A stretch of 19,173 nt of DNA from an uncultured archaeon (GCA_964610875.1 CAZSWP010000055.1:1-19173), one strand, 5' to 3'; shown: positions 2 to 9,411, counted from the first letter of the stretch. Program-made: numbers and translations. Notes: generated by a model from the letters alone, not told the origin.

Positions 2-196
2 AGAGGCTGTTACGTACTTGAGAGTAATTCTGCGACAGATGCAATCAGAGAACTCTATCCTGAATATCTGATTACAGAGGTCTATGCGTCACGTGCAATT
101 AGTTCAGTGTCATCGACAAGAGGTAAAATACCAGAATTTCTAATCAGTAATTATTCGCCGACAGAAAAACCACAAAAAACCTTAGATGAATTTTGA
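2..196 (+). CDS. dam: DNA adenine methyltransferase, Dam/D12 family, C-terminal end (5'-truncated by window; not in ORF track)
   Basis: Hand translation of frame +2: RGCYVLESNSATDAIRELYPEYLITEVYASRAISSVSSTRGKIPEFLISNYSPTEKPQKTLDEF*, TGA at 194-196. It matches the typical D12/Dam C-terminus (SNS..IRELY..V.A.R.I....RG...E.LI.NY). Confidence 0.85.
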   Translation, partial: RGCYVLESNSATDAIRELYPEYLITEVYASRAISSVSSTRGKIPEFLISNYSPTEKPQKTLDEF

Positions 197-198
197 TA

Positions 199-1686
199 TC
201 ACTCATCTTTTATGTAGATGAGTAAATATTCATGATTAATTTCTAAATCCCCTTGCTTATTTTCATGGTTCTCGGTTTCAGAGGTCACGATAACGATCTC
301 GCGAATACTAAAGTCTTCAAGTGGCAACTTCCAAAACTCTAATACCGGACAAACAAAGGAACCGTCTATTCTATAGTCCTTGCAACGAATTGCCAAATGA
401 CTATTATTGGGAATACTATCCCCGATCGACGAAACCAAATTCTTCATTTGAAGTTGTATCTCTTCTTTACTGATATGAAGATTTGATGCAAGAGATTGTG
501 TTTTAATATATGCAAGGTCTATGTCACCTAGTTGTTTAATTTCTTCATCTGTATCATTGTCTGCAAAAGATACCTCGATGATCGATTCATTACGTGTATA
601 CCGGTTAAAGAGATTTGATTCTAATTCAGACTCAATATCATCAGTCAATATCCATGTGGTTTTGCATTGCATGGTTGCGGGAGGATCGGGTTTTGCTAAT
701 TCTCTGAACCTGTGAGAAGGTATGCTTTGAGAAATTCCAAATATGGAACCCTTTTGTTTCTTTGAAAGAATAGGAAGATACTCCTGTGAGAGAAGTAGAA
801 AATTATGTTTAACACTTGATGAGTACCAGAAACCGGTAGTTCTACAATTATGTTGCCTTTTGATAATCAAATCCTGAAGAGAGAAACCTAGATTAGTGAA
901 TTTTTCAATGGTACGGAATCCCAAGGGAATGACTCGCTTTTTATTTCGCATATCACCAATCAAAATAGCACATATGCCATCTGGTTTTAAAACACGATAA
1001 CATTCTGCTGCAACATCTTCCATTTTTTGGAGAAAATCCTCTACTGATAATAAGGAGATGTCACCATCAATACCATCACTGTATGGGACAATGTCAGCAT
1101 AGGGAGGGTGTGTACATACCAAATCAATAGATCCATCTTCGATATCTGATAGATCACATGCATCGCCGACTGATATAAAAGGTTCATAGAAGGATGTATC
1201 ATCAATTTCTTCTTCTAGAGTTTTCTGTATACCGACAGTGAAGTCCAAATTTCTACGTACTAATTGGACTGCACCTAAATTGATATCTCTGGCAATACAT
1301 CTGCGTCCCAATAGTTTTGCTTCGACAGCTGTAGTTCCACCTCCACAAAACTGATCAAGTACAATATCACCAGGATGGCTATACCTCAGGATGACATTTC
1401 TTGGAATATATGGGGACCAATTCCCACGATAGTCACCATTATGAGTTGCCCAATTTCCACGACTCTTGAAACTCCAAACTGAACTAGTTTCAAGTTTGAA
1501 CTCCTTCGGAAATAGTGATCTAATTTTCCTACTGCTGGAGTATAGATTCAGGTTTATACCAGTTACTCCAATCACAGCATTTTCAATCTCACTAAGACCT
1601 ATCGAAAATTCTTGCATGACTTCCTGATCAGTTTTTCCTGATGCTTTAGCCTCGTAGATTGCATTCGATAGATCTTCATGATTCAT
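199..1686 (-). CDS. Amino (N4-C/N6-A)-type DNA methyltransferase with N-terminal HTH-like region and degenerate second MTase-like domain
   Basis: SAM-binding motif VLDQFCGGGTT precedes catalytic motif THPPY, with the family block VWSF..RGNWATH.GDYRGNWSPYIPRN. The start is set at ATG 1686 (MNHEDL...), which follows GGTGTTAGGA, rather than GTG 1800, because the extension spans a palindromic promoter-like region. Confidence 0.85.
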   Translation of the reverse strand: MNHEDLSNAIYEAKASGKTDQEVMQEFSIGLSEIENAVIGVTGINLNLYSSSRKIRSLFPKEFKLETSSVWSFKSRGNWATHNGDYRGNWSPYIPRNVILRYSHPGDIVLDQFCGGGTTAVEAKLLGRRCIARDINLGAVQLVRRNLDFTVGIQKTLEEEIDDTSFYEPFISVGDACDLSDIEDGSIDLVCTHPPYADIVPYSDGIDGDISLLSVEDFLQKMEDVAAECYRVLKPDGICAILIGDMRNKKRVIPLGFRTIEKFTNLGFSLQDLIIKRQHNCRTTGFWYSSSVKHNFLLLSQEYLPILSKKQKGSIFGISQSIPSHRFRELAKPDPPATMQCKTTWILTDDIESELESNLFNRYTRNESIIEVSFADNDTDEEIKQLGDIDLAYIKTQSLASNLHISKEEIQLQMKNLVSSIGDSIPNNSHLAIRCKDYRIDGSFVCPVLEFWKLPLEDFSIREIVIVTSETENHENKQGDLEINHEYLLIYIKDE

Positions 1687-1722
1687 TCCTAACACCAATG
1701 ACTGTATTTGAGTACAAGTTTT

Positions 1723-1750
1723 CAATAAATATAGACCACTATATTTATTG
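1723..1750. promoter_or_regulatory. Perfect 12-bp inverted repeat (putative operator) overlapping TATA-like sequence upstream of the MTase
   Basis: CAATAAATATAG-acca-CTATATTTATTG, 37-64 bp upstream of ATG 1686. Confidence 0.6.
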
Positions 1751-1804
1751 TAGGATGGCTTTTTTGAGCATAAACACCATGTTATTGTTTCAAACAACAC
1801 ATTT

Positions 1805-2440
1805 CTAATTCAATAAAGTTGATTGCTTTGATTTGTCAATATACCAAAGTGGTTCTAAATTTTCATGATAGTCTCTATGATTCCTATCCTCTTTTTTTGT
1901 GTATTTGACATAGGGTGTATTTCCTTTGGCTACACTCATACACATATTGTCAATCTCCTTTGGACTATCAATGAACTGCCGCACCCAACCCTGAAAGAAT
2001 AATGTAGGAGGGTCATATTTGCTAGGTTTGTTGTAACAGTATTCTTGTTCTATTAAAAAGAGTTGAGACAGTGTACCAATAACTTGAATGGCATTGAGCT
2101 TGTGTTCAAAATCAACCCTTTCCAATTCACACAGTTCATTAAGTGGATCCTTTCCATAAAATATATTGTCAAAAGCTGTTAGTAGATCTATTTTCATATC
2201 TGGTTTACAGCGTGTCCGTAGATTAAGGTCAATAAATAGACGCATATGATTTGGTCTGAATTCTCTAGAGCCCTCTTTAAGCCATATTTGAAAATTCTTA
2301 CTTACATCATATTTTTCAAACCTTTTTGCCAGTTTACTTGGTCGTAGTAGAAAGATATCAGCACTTTCACTTTTAAAAACGGATTTCCTAGTATCAAATG
2401 GAAGGTCTTTCACAATTTGAAATATTTCTTTTTTCTTCAT
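1805..2440 (-). CDS. Hypothetical protein, candidate restriction endonuclease partner of the adjacent MTase
   Basis: 211-aa soluble basic ORF, co-oriented and directly upstream of the MTase, with SD-like GAAGTGAG before the ATG. No catalytic motif was recognised; the function is from context only. Confidence 0.5.
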   Translation of the reverse strand: MKKKEIFQIVKDLPFDTRKSVFKSESADIFLLRPSKLAKRFEKYDVSKNFQIWLKEGSREFRPNHMRLFIDLNLRTRCKPDMKIDLLTAFDNIFYGKDPLNELCELERVDFEHKLNAIQVIGTLSQLFLIEQEYCYNKPSKYDPPTLFFQGWVRQFIDSPKEIDNMCMSVAKGNTPYVKYTKKEDRNHRDYHENLEPLWYIDKSKQSTLLN

Positions 2441-2647
2441 TTATTCTCACTTCAAATATACATATTATTCCTTGTTCATCACAATATACATACTACATTG
2501 AAGAGATAGGAAAAAGGTTTTTGGACTCTTAGAGTATATCCACTCTCCAAAACACAACATCTAATGAGTAAATTCGGGATTTATTCATTTTCGAAACACA
2601 AATTATAATTCGAATGGAACACCATTGAGATAATGTGGTATTGACAA

Positions 2648-3136
2648 GTGGCATTATTTTCATATGATATTCCTAGCAAATTGGGTTTTGACCTTGTTGA
2701 TGTGATTTTAGAAAATATTCTCACACAAAGGACTGTAAAGGAAATCTCACGCACAATTGGACAACATGAAAGGCATGCACGATTCCTAATACAAAACGCT
2801 GAAATTCTCAAATTGATCAAAAAAGAAAATGGTTACTGGGTATTGACAGGAACCGGGTTAGATTTCTTGGATTGTTGTAAAGAAGAAAAACAATCAATTC
2901 TTGTAAAAGCAGTCATGAAATGTAATTTATTTCAGGAGCTTTTCAGAAAGCTTGGGACACTTGACCATCTTTCCACTATTTCAACCAAACAAATTGCATC
3001 TTTCTTGAGAGAGAATACAGTGATTTCAAATAATAGACTCCACTCAATCAGTAGAAAAACTGCAATAAGAAGAGCTAGTTCAGTCAAGAAATGGATTATC
3101 TGGTTGAAAGCGCACATTAATAATTTCCAATTATGA
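2648..3136 (+). CDS. Stand-alone tandem winged-helix protein resembling the C-terminal (DUF7226-like) domain of restriction-associated proteins
   Basis: wHTH pattern (EISRTIGQHERHARFLIQNAEILKLI...WVLTGTG) and C-terminal signature S.KTAIRRASSVKKWIIWL, recalled from restriction-associated proteins ending STxxRRASTVxxWxxW. GTG start. Confidence 0.6.
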   Translation: MALFSYDIPSKLGFDLVDVILENILTQRTVKEISRTIGQHERHARFLIQNAEILKLIKKENGYWVLTGTGLDFLDCCKEEKQSILVKAVMKCNLFQELFRKLGTLDHLSTISTKQIASFLRENTVISNNRLHSISRKTAIRRASSVKKWIIWLKAHINNFQL

Positions 3137-3311
3137 AGCTCAATTAGAAAAATGCAGATAAAATTCGTTTTTCTATCTGAAGTAATATCCTCTATAGAAA
3201 AGAAATGCAATATTGACTAATAAAAACACTATATTTCCAATATCTTCATAATTATGTATTACGAGGTGTTTTTGTTCATCAATGATGACTATTAGAGGGA
3301 CATAGATACTA

Positions 3312-4607
3312 ATGACAAAAACTAAATCATATCTTCTGGTTGAGCCCGAGTTTCCCATTCCCACTAAGAGTAAAAACCACAAGGATTTCTTTCCTATTGG
3401 ATTATTGAAATTAGCCACACTACTAGATAATCAAGGTAATGAAGTGCAAATATTAAGAGGGCAAAAACCTATCGAGGAAATTCGATTCAAGCCAGATGAA
3501 GTTTGGGTAACATCACTCTTTACATACTGGTCAAAATATGTAAAGCAATCAGTGAAACATTATGCATCACTTTTTCCTTCTACTAAGACAGTAGTTGGAG
3601 GGATATATGCTTCTCTCATGCCTGAACATTGTAAGAATTATACAGGGTGTGACGAAGTATTCTTGGGAGTCTATCCTGAAGCAGAAATTGTTGACCCAAA
3701 TTATGACCTTCTTCCGGAAGGTTCCAATAATATAGATTTTCAGATAATACATGTCACAAGAGGTTGTCCAAGACGGTGTGAGTTTTGTGGGACATGGAAA
3801 ATAGAACCTGAATTTAAAGCAAAGAAAACAATCTTGCCTGAGATAAATAAAAGAAAACTCGTATTTTATGACAATAATTTACTTTATCATTCAGAAATTG
3901 AGGATATATTTCAAGAATTAATTGAACTAAAAGCCAAAAGGAAGATACTCTGGTGTGAAGCACAAAGTGGATTTGATGGTAGAATATTGTTGAAAAAACC
4001 ACATCTAGGTAAGATGATAAAAAAAGCAGGTTTCAGGTCACCTCGTATCGCTTGGGACTGGGGTTTTGACCAAAGAAAAAGTATAGCAAAGCAATTGAAA
4101 ATTTTGACTGATGCAGGATATAATGCAAAAGAAATTGAAGTATTTGTGCTTTATAATTGGGATATACCATTTGATGAGATGGAGAAGAAAAGGGTTCAGT
4201 GTTACAAATGGCGAGTGCAAATAGCCGATTGTAGGTATAGACCATTAGATCAGACATTTGACGAATACAATCCCCGTAGAAGAAACCAAACAGCTAGAGA
4301 TTATTACATTCATTCTCAGGCAGGTTGGACAGACTTCCTTGTGAAGCAATATAGAAAAAATATCCGCCGAACCAATATTTGTGTTCGACATGGATTTCCA
4401 TTCTATTCCTCTGCATTTGAGAGAAAAAAAATAGGAAATTCTCATGCAAAGCATCTCAAATCTCTTCATACATTGAAAGAAAAGGAAGAATATCTTAGGA
4501 AAGAGGGAATTGAATATTGGTTTCCAGGAAAAACCACAAAATCATATGAGCTACTTGATTCTTCTCAAAATACTGCACAAACATCTCTTCAAGAATTCAA
4601 TGTATGA
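3312..4607 (+). CDS. Radical SAM protein with N-terminal B12-binding-like domain
   Basis: CxxxCxxC motif TRGCPRRCEFC. N-terminal PIGLLKLA...VWVTSLFTY...VVGGIYASLMPEH is typical of cobalamin-binding-like radical SAM proteins, followed by FYDNNLL and QSGFDGR. Confidence 0.88.
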   Translation: MTKTKSYLLVEPEFPIPTKSKNHKDFFPIGLLKLATLLDNQGNEVQILRGQKPIEEIRFKPDEVWVTSLFTYWSKYVKQSVKHYASLFPSTKTVVGGIYASLMPEHCKNYTGCDEVFLGVYPEAEIVDPNYDLLPEGSNNIDFQIIHVTRGCPRRCEFCGTWKIEPEFKAKKTILPEINKRKLVFYDNNLLYHSEIEDIFQELIELKAKRKILWCEAQSGFDGRILLKKPHLGKMIKKAGFRSPRIAWDWGFDQRKSIAKQLKILTDAGYNAKEIEVFVLYNWDIPFDEMEKKRVQCYKWRVQIADCRYRPLDQTFDEYNPRRRNQTARDYYIHSQAGWTDFLVKQYRKNIRRTNICVRHGFPFYSSAFERKKIGNSHAKHLKSLHTLKEKEEYLRKEGIEYWFPGKTTKSYELLDSSQNTAQTSLQEFNV

Positions 4608-4637: not shown

Positions 4638-5039
4638 TCATGATTCCTTAAGTTTCGATATCATCATTTGTTCAAGTTCATTGATTATCGCTTGAGACTG
4701 TTTACTACTCATTTCTCTTAGTATTTCAATTCCAGCATTTGCAAACTCTTCGGCAATTGTATAGGTCTTATCCAAGTCTGCAAGAACTTCAACGCCTCCC
4801 TCCTTAACTGCAATCGCTTTGACAAGCTGTGAATATTTTCTAGGAAAAAACGAAAGAACCACAAGCCCATCCCGACTCTTACCAGCAAATGGCTTGGGTT
4901 CACCTGTTTGTAATCCTAAACCGAAAGCTACCATGAAAATCTCTGAATTAGATGCCTTGGAAAATGCACCTCGTGATGAGATCTTCTTGTAAATATCCCT
5001 ATGTTCCTTTAATATGTATATTCTATCACGTTCACCCAT
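4638..5039 (-). CDS. Dnd-system-associated small protein (dnd-associated protein 4 / DndE-like)
   Basis: IFMVAFGLG and IAEEFANAGIEIL resemble the IFEEYANGGLEIL signature. It overlaps the ATPase stop by 8 bp (ATGGGTGA) and has SD GAGGTGA at 5046-5052. Confidence 0.72.
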   Translation of the reverse strand: MGERDRIYILKEHRDIYKKISSRGAFSKASNSEIFMVAFGLGLQTGEPKPFAGKSRDGLVVLSFFPRKYSQLVKAIAVKEGGVEVLADLDKTYTIAEEFANAGIEILREMSSKQSQAIINELEQMMISKLKES

Positions 5040-7011
5040 ATTCTTTCACCTCAGATGTTCCATCTTGATTGCGCACGATTTCATATTCTGCTAGTAACAC
5101 TGGGGACAATGCATTTCTTTCTTGTTCTGTATATTCAGCTGAAGTCATTAAAATTATAATTTGTTTGCCTTTCATTTGTTCTTTCAGAACATTGAGTAAT
5201 GGTTCTCTGTCCTTTAGGTCAATTCTCCCAAGAGGTGTGTCAATTATAATTGGTGTTTCCCATACCGAAACAGAATTCAAAGCATGTAGAAAAGTAAGAG
5301 CAAGCGAAGCTCTTTGTCCTGCTGAGAGCCCGCCTATCCCATCTTCCATTCCATATTCCTTGAATTTTACCGAGGTCATGAAATCATTGCCAATCGATAT
5401 AGATTCGACTTTTGTATCATTTATAGCTATTAATCCTTGTTCGGATGTTACCTTATCAACCTGTTTTCGTATTGAATCGAGAACTTGTTCCGATATGTCT
5501 TGTCCTATTTCTAAGCTCTCTGAACATAGATCTTTTCTTTTGTTAAGTTTCTCATACTTTGCAATTGATCTCTGATATTGATCAAGCTTTGTTTCATTTT
5601 CATCACGTTCGCGTTCCCTCTCCTTAATTCTACCTTTTATCGCAATTTTTTCGGTAGTCAAATCTTCTATTTGCTTCTTTACTTCTGCTTCTCTTTTCTC
5701 AAGTTGCACTATATCAATATCATCAAAATCCTTGATTTGAGTATGAATGTCTTCAATCTCAAGACCAATTTCTGTGATTTCACCATTTACAGCATCAATC
5801 TTACCATTTACTGAACTCAACTGGTCTAAGATACCTCTTTTCTGCGAAGATAATTCGTGAAGATCACTAATTAGAAGAGGTAGCATTGTTGAGGTTGCTT
5901 CTCTTACTATATTCTCTTCCATCTTCTTTTTGAGATACTCTTCCTCTTCACTACCTTCTTTGATGTCACGTCCACATATACACTCTGCAGTTTCGATTAG
6001 ATGTTCAATGAAAATATTACGGAATGGTGCGGGTAATTCGTATCCTTCCTGACCTTCTGATATCAGTTTGAGAGCATTATCAATAGTATTTTTAGACACT
6101 GCAAGTGAAAAATCCTCAATGATCAATCTTTTTCTTCGATTTTCTAGATCATCAAGCCTCTGTTCCTTTTCTTTCTTCTCTTGTGTGAGAAGTTCTCTTC
6201 TCTTCTGTTTCTCTCGGATTACTTCTATGTTGCTGCTTCTTAAAGCTGAATCAAGGTCGCTTTTGAGATCTCTCAATTCATCCTCTTGTTCAATAATATC
6301 TTCAAGTTTTTCCTTGTGCGTATCGATTTCGTTTGAAAGTTCATCAATTCGTTTTTGTACTGATTTCATCTGAGGGGTGGGATCGCTATAACTCTGTTTG
6401 AAATCCTTTTTCGTTTTTTCGAGTTTATCTACAACTTTATCAAATAAGTTCAGTTTTGATATACCATGAATTGCTCCTCGAATTTTACTAACTGTTTGTT
6501 CAAGGAAGTATTTGTCAAGCTTTTCTCCATCGAACATGAAGTAAGATGATAGGGTTTCTGGCATAACTCTCTCAATATATAACTGAGGATAATCATAATA
6601 TTCGTAATCTTTTTCAGATAGATATCCAACGGAAAGTGATGATAGACCTCCACCTATTTTTTCTTCTTTGATGGTTCCATTCTTTGTTTTTCTGAATCTT
6701 TTCTTTCTGCAAATTTCAGTTCTTATCCCTTCATCCATGAAGACCAAACTAACTTCAACATCAGCTGTTTCACCCACAGTCATAGCAGCTTTTGTAGAGG
6801 AATTTAGCATAGGGAGAGCTCTTCTTTTAAGGCCCAAGTGAGGTTCTTCTTCATAGAGACACCAATTGATAGCATTAAGGATATTCGTTTTTCCAAAACC
6901 CATTCTACCCACCACTACGGCGATATGAGCTTCTTCAGAAACATCAGGAATCTCTATTGTTGTATTTCGATACTGTCTATAATTTTTCAGTACAATCCTT
7001 TTCAGAATCAT
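5032..7011 (-). CDS. DndD/Rad50-like coiled-coil ABC ATPase with CxC hinge
   Basis: Walker A GRMGFGKT, FMFDGE, long coiled coils, central CICG, signature LSAGQR, Walker B/D-loop IIIDTPLGRID (DndD-type DTP). SD GGAGTGA at 7017-7023. Confidence 0.9.
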   Translation of the reverse strand: MILKRIVLKNYRQYRNTTIEIPDVSEEAHIAVVVGRMGFGKTNILNAINWCLYEEEPHLGLKRRALPMLNSSTKAAMTVGETADVEVSLVFMDEGIRTEICRKKRFRKTKNGTIKEEKIGGGLSSLSVGYLSEKDYEYYDYPQLYIERVMPETLSSYFMFDGEKLDKYFLEQTVSKIRGAIHGISKLNLFDKVVDKLEKTKKDFKQSYSDPTPQMKSVQKRIDELSNEIDTHKEKLEDIIEQEDELRDLKSDLDSALRSSNIEVIREKQKRRELLTQEKKEKEQRLDDLENRRKRLIIEDFSLAVSKNTIDNALKLISEGQEGYELPAPFRNIFIEHLIETAECICGRDIKEGSEEEEYLKKKMEENIVREATSTMLPLLISDLHELSSQKRGILDQLSSVNGKIDAVNGEITEIGLEIEDIHTQIKDFDDIDIVQLEKREAEVKKQIEDLTTEKIAIKGRIKERERERDENETKLDQYQRSIAKYEKLNKRKDLCSESLEIGQDISEQVLDSIRKQVDKVTSEQGLIAINDTKVESISIGNDFMTSVKFKEYGMEDGIGGLSAGQRASLALTFLHALNSVSVWETPIIIDTPLGRIDLKDREPLLNVLKEQMKGKQIIILMTSAEYTEQERNALSPVLLAEYEIVRNQDGTSEVKEYG

Positions 7012-7016
7012 TCAGT

Positions 7017-7247
7017 TCACTCCTTCTCTTGGATACCCTCAACAATAACATCTTTGTACCAATCTTTCCAATGCCAGACCTCTTTTTCGCGTTCTTTATA
7101 TTCCTTGTATAATGCTCTTAGTAAAACACGTTTTGCTTGATAACTGCCTTCACATTCATCAAGAGCAGAAGCAACCCAAGGATTAATATTTCGACTAATT
7201 ATTTCAAGTAATCCTTCTAGCCCTTTAGTTTTCCATTTCTTTACCAT
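7017..7247 (-). CDS. Small helical protein of the helicase-ATPase operon
   Basis: 76-aa ORF filling the gap between helicase (4 bp) and ATPase (5 bp); helical, charged and Trp-rich at the C-terminus. Confidence 0.7.
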   Translation of the reverse strand: MVKKWKTKGLEGLLEIISRNINPWVASALDECEGSYQAKRVLLRALYKEYKEREKEVWHWKDWYKDVIVEGIQEKE

Positions 7248-7251
7248 ACTT

Positions 7252-9411
7252 TCACAACCTTATGTTTCCGAAAAGACCTGCATCGATCTCAGCATCTGCT
7301 ATTTTTCGCATGCATTCATCCCTATTCAAAGCAAGTCCAGCAAACTCTTCATATCTTCTTGTTTCTTTCCGAATGATCTTCATTTCAACTTCCCTAGATA
7401 AAGCATCTGATGATAGTTTTGGCATTACTATGATGTCGTAAATATCCGCGTTTTGTTTCCCTTCAGTAAACCTAAGAATTCTCCCTCTTCGTTGAATATA
7501 TTGTCTTGGATTTCCTGTACTTGATAAAATAATAGCTTTATCAACACAAGGTACATCCACGCCTTCGTCAAGACATCTGATACCGATTAGCACCTGATAA
7601 TATCCATTCTCAAGACCTTTTAGTAATCTGCTGCGTTCAGATATGCCATTTTCATCAGGAACTGCACTTTCAGCTTGTGTGAATTTATGTTGTTTTATCT
7701 CGTATCTGTTGAGTAGTGAACTGACTGAATCTATCTGCTCTGGAGATACATATATCAGAGCTTTGTCCAAATTCCCCGATTTTTTCAGAGAAGTGACTAT
7801 TTCCTCCAATATCCCCAATTTTCGTCTTGCATTTCGGATTATTTTAGCCCTTTTATTTAGAAGGATTGATAATACATTTGACTTGTCCTTATCGGTTCTT
7901 GCAGCATGATATGACTTCCCTATCCGGGACGTTAGCTCGCGATAATCACGAAGCTCTTCCTCGTCCAATTCAACAAAAGTTGGGTGATAATTATAAGGAA
8001 CAAGAATAGGATTACCAGTTTCAGGATTTTTTAGTTCCAAGGCAGTGCTTAAAGGAAGTTCATATACGACATCATTGAAATACTCAATTAATCTATCCGT
8101 GCCCTCATCATCAAACCACCTTCGTGGTGTAGCACTTAATCCCAATCGCATATTGTATTCTTCTAGTAAACCCTCACTGCGTACAGGAGCTCCTATACCA
8201 TGTACTTCGTCAATAATTATGAGTTTTTCAGCAGATATTTTTCCTATCATATCGATAAAACGTTCTGAAGAAAAAGTGTTGTGAGTAGTTATTACAATAA
8301 ACTTATTCTTTGTTCCCAATAGAAGACGGTTATTTTCACGAGTAACATCAGATTCCCAAGTAGGATTTGTGCTATCTGCAGATATAACCTCAATCCCAAG
8401 ACCCAAACTGCGAACATTGTTTCTCCATTGGTCACCGATATGTCGATATGGAGCAGAGATAATTACCACGAGAGGAGTAATTTCTTTTACTGTTTCACAA
8501 AAACAGGAAAGTGCTGCCAATGTTTTACCCGTGCCGGTTGCCATTTCAAGCATTCCACAGCGATTGGCTTGCAACCATTTTCTTACTGCAGTCAACTGAT
8601 GAGGCCAAAGACTCATTTCCTTTCTACTACCGCAAAGTCTTGGTTTTGATAATTCTCTTTTCAAAATAGCTAAATCTTCCTTTTCAATTGGAGACCTTTT
8701 TGTCAAGCTCTTTACAACAGCTGAAGGTGCGTCTAATACTTTGATTCTGTAACTACGATTATTCCAATAACGCTCAAATTTAGCAACATCACTATCATGA
8801 TAGTATTTTTCCGCGTCTATCCAACTTCGAAATACTTTGAATTCTTCTATGTTGGATGACCATCCTGAGGCAGTTTCATTTATTGAACCACTAAATGAAA
8901 TCGATTCTCCATTTTTATCCCATATTATTCCAACTTTTTGATGAAATAGCCCAGATGATTCGATCTCTTCTGCTGGAACAAGATTACCGGCATTATTTAG
9001 AACAAGAGCTAATTTAATTTCAATGTAGCCCTCTCGCAGCATCCAACCGAGAGCTGATATGTAATCAGACTCTATTACTGAACTTATATCATTTAAAGAC
9101 TCAAGCATTCTCGCTTCTATTATTTCGTAGTCATTGTTACCTGTGATTGCTTCTACATCTTTTTTTGTAAGATATGGACTTGTTAGTAATCTTATATGAC
9201 CTCTATTTTGAATAAGACCTGCAATGCCTCTTGCTGCTATTGCCAAACAGGTAGAGGAAAAGAATCCGGTTAATCTATCATACTTCTTAGCTACTGAAAG
9301 AACTGGAACATAGAATTCATCAACTAAAGATGATGCATCTGATTCATATACCAGTCTAATAGTTAAGTCTTTTAGACTGTCAGTATTTTCTGAAACCCCA
9401 AAATCATTCAT
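7252..9411 (-). CDS. PLD (HKD) nuclease - SF2 DExH helicase fusion (similar to phosphorothioation-associated restriction helicases)
   Basis: HQKVGIIWD (HxKxxxxD) plus FSGSINET. Helicase motifs MATGTGKT, IIDEVH, SATP, LDEGVDVP and QRRGRILR. Confidence 0.92.
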   Translation of the reverse strand: MNDFGVSENTDSLKDLTIRLVYESDASSLVDEFYVPVLSVAKKYDRLTGFFSSTCLAIAARGIAGLIQNRGHIRLLTSPYLTKKDVEAITGNNDYEIIEARMLESLNDISSVIESDYISALGWMLREGYIEIKLALVLNNAGNLVPAEEIESSGLFHQKVGIIWDKNGESISFSGSINETASGWSSNIEEFKVFRSWIDAEKYYHDSDVAKFERYWNNRSYRIKVLDAPSAVVKSLTKRSPIEKEDLAILKRELSKPRLCGSRKEMSLWPHQLTAVRKWLQANRCGMLEMATGTGKTLAALSCFCETVKEITPLVVIISAPYRHIGDQWRNNVRSLGLGIEVISADSTNPTWESDVTRENNRLLLGTKNKFIVITTHNTFSSERFIDMIGKISAEKLIIIDEVHGIGAPVRSEGLLEEYNMRLGLSATPRRWFDDEGTDRLIEYFNDVVYELPLSTALELKNPETGNPILVPYNYHPTFVELDEEELRDYRELTSRIGKSYHAARTDKDKSNVLSILLNKRAKIIRNARRKLGILEEIVTSLKKSGNLDKALIYVSPEQIDSVSSLLNRYEIKQHKFTQAESAVPDENGISERSRLLKGLENGYYQVLIGIRCLDEGVDVPCVDKAIILSSTGNPRQYIQRRGRILRFTEGKQNADIYDIIVMPKLSSDALSREVEMKIIRKETRRYEEFAGLALNRDECMRKIADAEIDAGLFGNIRL

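Follow-up and report, generated by a model that had tools for sequence, protein, structure and literature searches.

The window, the whole stretch of DNA analysed here, is a single 19,173-bp contig (CAZSWP010000055.1; contig C55) of an Asgard (Thorarchaeota) metagenome-assembled genome (MAG), which comprises 3.75 Mb in 124 contigs and is 95% complete. Its left 9.4 kb is AT-rich, with a GC content of 33-37% compared with 41-48% on the right, and encodes nine proteins, referred to below as the island. Two of them, a Dam/D12-class DNA adenine methyltransferase (Dam) and a radical S-adenosylmethionine enzyme with a B12-binding domain (rSAM), end in short tails that resemble the PCNA-interacting protein (PIP) box, and these tails are the subject of the present analysis. 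An earlier note on the sequence had proposed docking on the sliding clamp PCNA for four peptides of the island, namely the tails of Dam, rSAM and a 211-aa protein and an internal segment of an N6_N4 methyltransferase (MTase). The features concerned are listed with their coordinates and strand; C-terminal sequences in the list and in the text are written up to the last residue before the stop codon.

2-196, plus strand: Dam/D12-class DNA adenine methyltransferase, C-terminal 64 residues, the 5' part being cut by the contig end.
173-193 (stop 194-196), plus strand: Dam tail QKTLDEF, separated from the core end ..LISNY by the 6-residue linker SPTEKP.
3312-4607, plus strand: B12-binding-domain radical SAM enzyme, 431 aa (PF02310, CxxxCxxC).
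4551-4604, plus strand: flexible tail formed by rSAM residues 414-431, with the PIP-like QTSLQEFNV at its end (4578-4604).
199-1800 (likely start ATG at 1689), minus strand: N6_N4 (DpnA-like) DNA methyltransferase with a C-terminal extension (Pfam PF01555, 98 bits; PADLOC MTase_II, 271 bits).
1207-1227, minus strand: internal QKTLEEE of the N6_N4 MTase, in a variable loop, not PIP-like.
1805-2440, minus strand: 211-aa protein taking the place of the endonuclease in the Dam-MTase cassette, no family match.
1808-1825, minus strand: tail of the 211-aa protein, QSTLLN, weak and without an aromatic residue.

All four peptides were found where the earlier note had placed them, except that the span given for rSAM (4578-4598) covers only QTSLQEF, and the complete ending extends to 4604. 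It was also right that no protein of the right half of the window ends in such a motif, and the same holds for the other island proteins.

The frequency of the motif was determined in the host proteome, roughly called as ~3,388 non-overlapping open reading frames (ORFs), the C-termini of which are independent of start-codon choice. The strict form QxxLxxF, ending at most two residues from the C-terminus, occurs in 8 of these ORFs. Within their last 12 residues the eight carriers, named with Pfam and NCBIfam, are rSAM, Fen1, RNase HII, Hel308, DinB, a DUF72 protein, DpdA and a small winged helix-turn-helix (wHTH) protein, and a relaxed form of the motif ends NreA (QTTILDFL) and PolD DP2 (QTVLSDYFEE). 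At the proteome rate of the strict motif, 1.2e-4 per position, 0.41 occurrences are expected per C-terminal bin. The numbers observed at 0, 1 and 2 residues from the terminus were 3, 3 and 2, with none at 3-9 residues, and the enrichment is thus confined to the extreme C-terminus. Shuffling of the last 30 residues (n = 300) yielded 1.5 motifs on average and never more than 5, compared with the 8 observed. The shorter QxxL, by comparison, lies inside the last 7 residues of 44 of the 3,388 ORFs. In the comparison of C-terminal frequencies that the earlier note had suggested, strict QxxLxxF therefore stands above background, whereas the QxxL of the 211-aa protein does not.

A position-specific scoring matrix (PSSM) trained on six textbook PCNA clients of the host, and scored against all non-training C-termini, gave a similar division. 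The DUF72 protein ranked first (17.9 bits), DpdA second (16.1 bits) and rSAM third (14.3 bits) among the non-training termini. The Dam tail scored 10.3 bits, which would place it ~13th of ~3,389. The internal MTase loop, which is without an aromatic residue, scored 7.3 bits, and the 211-aa tail was at background with -4.4 bits. The Dam and rSAM tails exceed chance, and the 211-aa tail and the MTase loop do not.

The Dam fragment matches the PADLOC orphan and Type II MTase models up to their last residues and is 62-74% identical to full-length PF02086 homologues of 281-294 aa; of Dam itself, only the last 64 residues are encoded on the contig. Most of the ~120 Dam homologues listed stop at the core end ..NY. 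In a Thorarchaeota clade (at least 62% identity to the fragment), the core is followed by a variable linker of 5-8 residues, ~20 in one case, and a PIP-like end. Of the 22 closest homologues, 18 terminate in the pattern Qxx[LIMV]x[DEQGH][FY], in most cases with no residue beyond it, as do P0235 and P0236; the named members among these closest homologues are Thorarchaeota MAGs, which is one of the grounds for assigning the host to this group. The variants include QRVLDEF, QSTMDDF, QMQIDDF, QTQIEDF, QLRLDQF, QTSLDEF, QTRIDEF, QTKVHDY and QSLLEEY, in which positions 1, 4 and 7 are fixed as glutamine, hydrophobic and aromatic, respectively, an acidic residue prevails at position 6 and the remaining positions are variable. 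The trio of Dam, N6_N4 MTase and 211-aa protein is kept in two related loci (L037 and L038) in a conserved chromosomal neighbourhood, which indicates that the cassette is resident in the Thorarchaeota lineage. As judged from these alignments, the Dam tail is an add-on beyond the family core. A different conserved tail, EPK[IV]xQRKLVEEIVAxN, is seen in Dam proteins with Micrarchaeota names; it is of the QxxL type and is without an aromatic residue.

The rSAM protein belongs to a family of 2,337 homologues with ~60% identity across bacteria and archaea, the core of which ends in ..DYWFPxxxTYP. The cysteines of its CxxxCxxC motif (C152, C156 and C159) are invariant in 35 homologues. The B12-binding-domain model PF02310 is matched with 36.8 bits (cut-off 32.1), and PF04055 with only 22.5 bits (cut-off 29.5). 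A structural model built from the 35-sequence alignment has a predicted local distance difference test (pLDDT) score of 90, falling below 50 for residues 414-431. Among the rSAM matches listed, PIP tails occur only in a clade of 72-76% identity (P0003-P0006), with the endings QLLLDHYA, QTSLDSFI, QMSLASFG and QMSLDSFN, and in genomes of the same family as the host. In the latter group, a frameshifted Thorarchaeota copy (G333, locus L020) ends in QTSLDSFA and another (G314) in QAVVLDF. The gene is present in 18 of the 400 genomes of the phylum that were surveyed; copies from other families in this survey have no PIP-like end, those of one genus ending in KLFD[NS]H[IV]. The host itself encodes an rSAM paralogue of 43% identity at a contig end (G000:C47:21-1127, minus strand; L058), the C-terminus of which runs off the contig.

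Outside the Thorarchaeota, the rSAM proteins of Methanobrevibacter, Methanoperedenaceae, Helarchaeota, Methanophagales, Thermoplasmata and bacteria have neither a PIP tail nor a beta-clamp-like motif, and no QL[SD]LF-like motif was found among the ~120 listed members of each of the rSAM and Dam families. The possibility, raised in the earlier note, that bacterial homologues carry QL[S/D]LF beta-clamp motifs instead was not borne out, as bacterial and most archaeal homologues of both enzymes end at the core. Most family members being tail-less, the tail should be dispensable for catalysis. The rSAM tail is an add-on beyond the family core and is modelled as disordered, in keeping with a linear motif that sits on a flexible tail. 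Conservation of the tails in archaeal homologues is therefore of a restricted kind: those of Dam and rSAM are kept in the closest Thorarchaeota homologues, whereas distant archaeal and bacterial relatives are without them, and the 211-aa family representatives from a library search end without QxxL.

Docking was modelled for the rSAM tail alone, as a complex of the single PCNA of the host (L013:1501-2256) with rSAM residues 387-431 and with three controls. The complex scored 0.71 and the best control 0.00; 51 of 78 solved complexes reached this mark, as did 2 of 108 mismatched pairs. Between runs, contact agreement was at least 73%, and the pLDDT of the partner was at least 48. The modelled interface places rSAM residues 420-431 against PCNA residues 40, 43-47, 126-128, 226-227, 243 and 245-250. 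The contacted surface is that bound by known PIP peptides, such as the consensus peptide KTTQSTLDSFFK in the solved complex 1RXM (PMC4929162), and consists of the interdomain-connector pocket plus the C-terminal strand. The modelling proposed in the earlier note places the rSAM tail in the canonical pocket.

The other two peptides were rejected as PIP boxes. QSTLLN of the 211-aa protein has no aromatic residue and scores at background, and its family core ends in PLWY[LI]. A library search returned no QxxL tail among full-length representatives of the family; of the closest relatives, one ends in DKEQLIL (L037), the sole echo of QxxL, and the other in WYID (L038). Reading through the stop codon gives KCVV, with no hidden aromatic residue. 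In the internal QKTLEEE of the MTase, Q155 and L158 are kept in three homologues, but an aromatic residue never occurs at position +7, which holds E, A or S instead; the enzyme, aligned with its homologues in L014 and L035, is also without a terminal PIP. By their sequences, neither the 211-aa tail nor the MTase loop is probably a clamp motif. The 211-aa protein has no match in Pfam, PADLOC or NCBIfam. Its AlphaFold2 model has a pLDDT of 95, yet a Foldseek search of the PDB gave no match at E <= 0.001, and a wide VIA-align search gave a best Z of 5.8. The family has ~90 representatives, with P63, H65, E131 and Q132 invariant.

Archaeal clients with a C-terminal PIP box (Fen1, RNase HII, PolD DP2, Hel308/Hjm, DinB, NreA and NucS) likewise have Q-x-x-L-x-x-aromatic at their very end, where a flexible extension carries it. 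At the sequence level Dam and rSAM belong with them as putative clients, having the motif, the flexible extension and key positions that are kept while the flanks vary. The carriers differ from the known clients in being a restriction-modification (R-M)-type Dam and a defence-operon rSAM and not replication or repair factors. Methylases and radical SAM enzymes are not listed among archaeal PCNA clients in PMC4929162.

Several observations speak against clamp docking by the two tails. Both contain a single aromatic residue, in contrast to the textbook archaeal consensus QSTLDSFF (PMC4929162), although host RNase HII (..QQTLLDF) and Hel308 (..DFEQ) likewise have one. Most members of both families, including those of other archaea, have no tail, and one same-family rSAM copy (G392) has the degenerate ending QTEVQEHV. 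Where a Dam gene lies beside a PIP-tailed rSAM gene (L014, L020 and L035), its product terminates in T[RA]QQ[RK]Lx and has no aromatic residue there. Among ~14 MTase-like ORFs of the host that were checked, none has a clear terminal PIP. Dam is cut by the contig end, and the rest of its gene, with the catalytic part, was not found in a search of the host assembly. Finally, because PIP-PCNA complexes have already been solved, the score of the docking model may owe itself to memorised structures and demonstrates no more than a resemblance to PIP peptides. With respect to the tails just mentioned, T[RA]QQ[RK]Lx is found in the Dam proteins at L014:1296-2168, L020:3466-3654 and L035:1555-2427; the Dam proteins with either this tail or that of the Micrarchaeota also include P0143, P0246, P0254, P0300 and many of P0253-P0337, and one weak N6_N4-like ORF of the host ends in QIVIAKFS.

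Taking these points into account, we put the probability that the tails of Dam and rSAM function in docking on PCNA at roughly 0.68, on the basis of their match to the consensus of the host clients, their clade-specific conservation and, for the rSAM tail, a docking model with clean controls. Dam and rSAM are probably clamp-tethered modification enzymes, so that the proposal of the earlier note is retained for two island proteins and not for three or four. The tail is an optional, lineage-specific refinement, since other methylases of the host and most family members do without it.

What rSAM might do on DNA is suggested by its neighbours. On the right, it is convergent with a PbeD-PbeC-PbeB-PbeA operon (4638-9411, minus strand), and on the left it is preceded by its partner gene. 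The features concerned are as follows.

2648-3136, plus strand: DUF7226 protein, the partner of rSAM (Pfam PF23871, 51.5 bits).
4638-5039, minus strand: PbeD (DndE-like, dnd_assoc_4), matching NCBIfam TIGR04062 with E 2.6e-8, below the curated cut-off, and the PbeD proteins of L032 and L034.
5032-7011, minus strand: PbeC, a CxC-type ABC/SMC-like ATPase (PADLOC PbeC, 315 bits), with a CICG motif in the translation.
7017-7247, minus strand: small protein of 76 aa in the PbeB position, placed by its location between PbeA and PbeC, no family match.
7252-9411, minus strand: PbeA, an HKD/PLD nuclease fused to an SF2 helicase (PADLOC PbeA, 730 bits; Pfam ResIII, DEAD, Helicase_C and PLDc_2).

In L032 and L034, rSAM is the last gene of PbeA-B-C-D-rSAM operons, and it adjoins PbeC or PbeD in two other Asgard genomes (L040 and L051). 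Elsewhere, the gene overlaps those for ParB_N or ParB_N-DpnII/MboI nuclease proteins (L017 and L023), comes after DrmE_C in a DISARM-like setting (L024) or after a GHKL ATPase (L018), or ends SNF2-helicase operons of four or five genes (L066 and L067). DUF7226 adjoins rSAM in L014, L015, L035 and L020, and in L065 it is fused to a 1,436-aa SNF2 helicase encoded directly upstream of rSAM. In L014, L016 and L035, rSAM lies beside Dam/DpnII cassettes. A blastx comparison of the metagenomic loci L014 and L015 with the host proteome gave matches to island genes alone. The Pbe, DISARM-like, GHKL-ATPase, ParB-nuclease and SNF2 operons that end in rSAM are without a conventional methylase. In the host, no DndC was detected above the cut-off in the 95%-complete genome (best 49.5 bits, compared with a cut-off of 290).

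The occurrence of rSAM at the end of operons without a methylase, together with the lack of a host DndC to serve Pbe, points to rSAM as a modification enzyme. The simplest reading is that it is the modification, or 'self-marking', enzyme of these operons and that DUF7226 is its adaptor. A more specific version, in which rSAM writes a new DNA self mark by radical chemistry that is read by the PbeABCD, DISARM-like and ParB-nuclease modules, is tentative, and we consider it somewhat less probable than an even chance; the place of the family (~2,300 close homologues) as the terminal gene of helicase/nuclease defence operons without a methylase forms part of this proposal. The earlier note had taken the tail as independent evidence of a DNA substrate for rSAM, which appears reasonable and is independently strengthened by the gene context.

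The Pbe genes of the window can be compared with the published PbeABCD, or CxC-ABC ATPase-DndE, modules. PbeA, PbeC and the PbeD-like protein are present in the canonical order, and PbeB is assigned by position only. The published modules are paired with a DNA modification, either phosphorothioation or cytosine methylases (Xiong 2019, PMC6459918; Rakesh, Aravind and Krishnan 2024, PMC10853773), and an rSAM partner is not mentioned in the text of either paper. In contrast, the adjacent enzyme here and in L032, L034, L040 and L051 is a B12-type rSAM. The companion dndCDEA phosphorothioation module of the characterised archaeal Pbe system is likewise missing, no DndC above the cut-off having been found in the host genome.

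The left end of the window resembles DpnII-type GATC cassettes, which consist of the Dam-like DpnM, the N6_N4 enzyme DpnA and DpnII, in that a Dam-class enzyme is adjacent to an N6_N4 MTase. The related loci L014 and L016 contain a true DpnII endonuclease within the cassette. In the window, as in L037 and L038, the third gene instead encodes the 211-aa protein, which has no nuclease signature and no match to DpnII, and the Dam protein carries the predicted clamp tail.

By its sequence features, an N-terminal B12-binding-like domain and CxxxCxxC, rSAM falls among the class B radical SAM enzymes, and its use of cobalamin is putative. TsrM, TokK, CysS, OxsB and MgmA, and AprD4, which does not use cobalamin, have the same Rossmann-type B12-binding-like domain followed by a CxxxCxxC barrel. 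The nearest solved folds are TsrM, AprD4, MgmA, MiaB, CysS, TokK and OxsB, with 10-14% identity and a TM-score of about 0.5, and AprD4 and MiaB, neither of which uses cobalamin, match about as well as the cobalamin enzymes. The rSAM family differs from these enzymes in being separate and highly conserved, in its defence-operon context and in its predicted PCNA tail.

Of the alternatives, the one that survives best holds that the tails are under selection but bind a different partner, such as a replisome or defence hub, an island partner or a viral PCNA-like clamp, or that they act as a PCNA-dependent degron or regulator. Conservation of the tails shows selection, not the identity of the partner; PCNA-like proteins are encoded by Asgard viruses (PMC11529989), and related archaeal Dam clades have conserved tails of other kinds, the aromatic-less TRQQRLx and QRKLVEEIVAxN (Micrarchaeota). 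However, the same terminal motif marks Fen1, RNase HII, Hel308, DinB, NreA and PolD DP2 of the host, and the model seats rSAM 420-431 in the canonical PIP pocket while every control scored 0.00, subject to the reservation already made about memorised structures. We regard this explanation as unlikely.

A second alternative grants docking on PCNA and assigns rSAM a different target, with the enzyme acting on a clamp-associated protein or on RNA primers, or serving as a viperin-like defence effector at forks or invading replicons. The nearest solved folds (TsrM, AprD4, MgmA and MiaB) act on small molecules, proteins and RNA, and no paper describing the chemistry of the rSAM family was found. On the other hand, rSAM occupies the modification slot of restriction-like operons without a methylase (Pbe, DISARM-like and ParB-nuclease), and there is no DndC above the cut-off to serve Pbe, which makes this alternative less probable still than a different binding partner. 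That the endings are chance or neutral C-terminal extensions without function is the most improbable explanation. In its favour are the shortness of the motif, the many relatives in both families that manage without a tail, and the background level of the motifs in the 211-aa protein and inside the MTase. However, only ~1.2-1.5 strict C-terminal motifs are expected in the whole proteome, compared with two among nine island proteins, and the glutamine, hydrophobic and aromatic positions are kept across diverged linkers in ~20 Dam and ~7 rSAM relatives.

Should PCNA indeed be the docking site of the two tails, the following sequence of events may be envisaged. The disordered C-terminal extension, which appears to have been added in the Thorarchaeota lineage, would end in a host-tuned PIP box, Q-x-x-[LIVM]-x-[DEQ]-[FY]. 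On the single PCNA of the host, it would enter the hydrophobic pocket that lies beneath the interdomain connector loop, in the manner of Fen1, RNase HII, Hel308, DinB, PolD DP2 and NreA, and the two enzymes would become concentrated on the PCNA rings left behind the fork on fresh DNA. There, Dam would re-methylate its sites, possibly GATC as judged from the DpnII-type cassettes of related loci, and rSAM with DUF7226 would install its own mark on the daughter DNA. Marking would in this way precede the action of PbeABCD, and possibly of the 211-aa protein, on unmodified daughter DNA.

Other C-termini with the motif were noted in the host genome. A DpdA-type DNA transglycosylase (NF041059, 418 bits; G000:C15:10702-11925, minus strand; L003 and L029:7703-8926), the gene of which is flanked by DUF5591 and DUF6884 genes, ends in QATLEDF. 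By its sequence it is a further candidate for a clamp-tethered DNA-modification enzyme of this genome and lends support to the clamp-tethering theme. The DUF72 protein (G000:C1:62720-63580; L001), which has the top non-training PIP score, ends in QTTLFDF, and a 96-aa ArsR-like wHTH protein (G000:C38:20253-20543; L006) ends in QAKLQDFT; both are possible unrecognised clients of PCNA. Just below this set are two ORFs without the glutamine, one of 942 aa ending in ..GFTTLEEFF (G000:C37:7066-9894) and one of 165 aa ending in ..GTVLLEFIE (G000:C39:10486-10983). The terminal PIP motif is specific enough in the host genome to find new clamp clients, DpdA and the DUF72 protein having surfaced in this way.

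PIP-box clients of archaeal PCNA are known already; what appears to be new here, going by the proteins that carry them, is the presence of PIP-type tails on an R-M Dam and on a radical SAM enzyme. The literature search found no paper on PIP-tailed methylases or radical SAM enzymes of archaea, Asgard archaea included, or on clamp-binding motifs in R-M methylases, and likewise none on DUF7226 and nothing that connects cobalamin rSAM enzymes with defence or with the modification of DNA. Analogous to the proposed role of Dam, the eukaryotic maintenance DNA methyltransferase DNMT1 is brought to replication forks through a PIP box that binds PCNA. The logic is the same, a clamp-tethered methyltransferase re-marking nascent DNA. 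Dam differs from DNMT1 in being an N6-adenine enzyme of the D12 class and not a C5-cytosine enzyme, in having its motif at the C-terminus and not at the N-terminus, and in having gained it within one archaeal family, with no sign of common descent.

What makes the locus most interesting is the putative clamp tail of rSAM. It is the most direct sequence-level clue so far to DNA action by a large, conserved and unstudied family, and it makes rSAM a candidate for a new DNA-modification chemistry, one that would account for Pbe modules without phosphorothioation genes. If the tails bind PCNA, R-M-type marking in Asgard archaea would be coupled to the replication clamp, as in eukaryotes with DNMT1, but the coupling would have arisen independently and on different enzymes.

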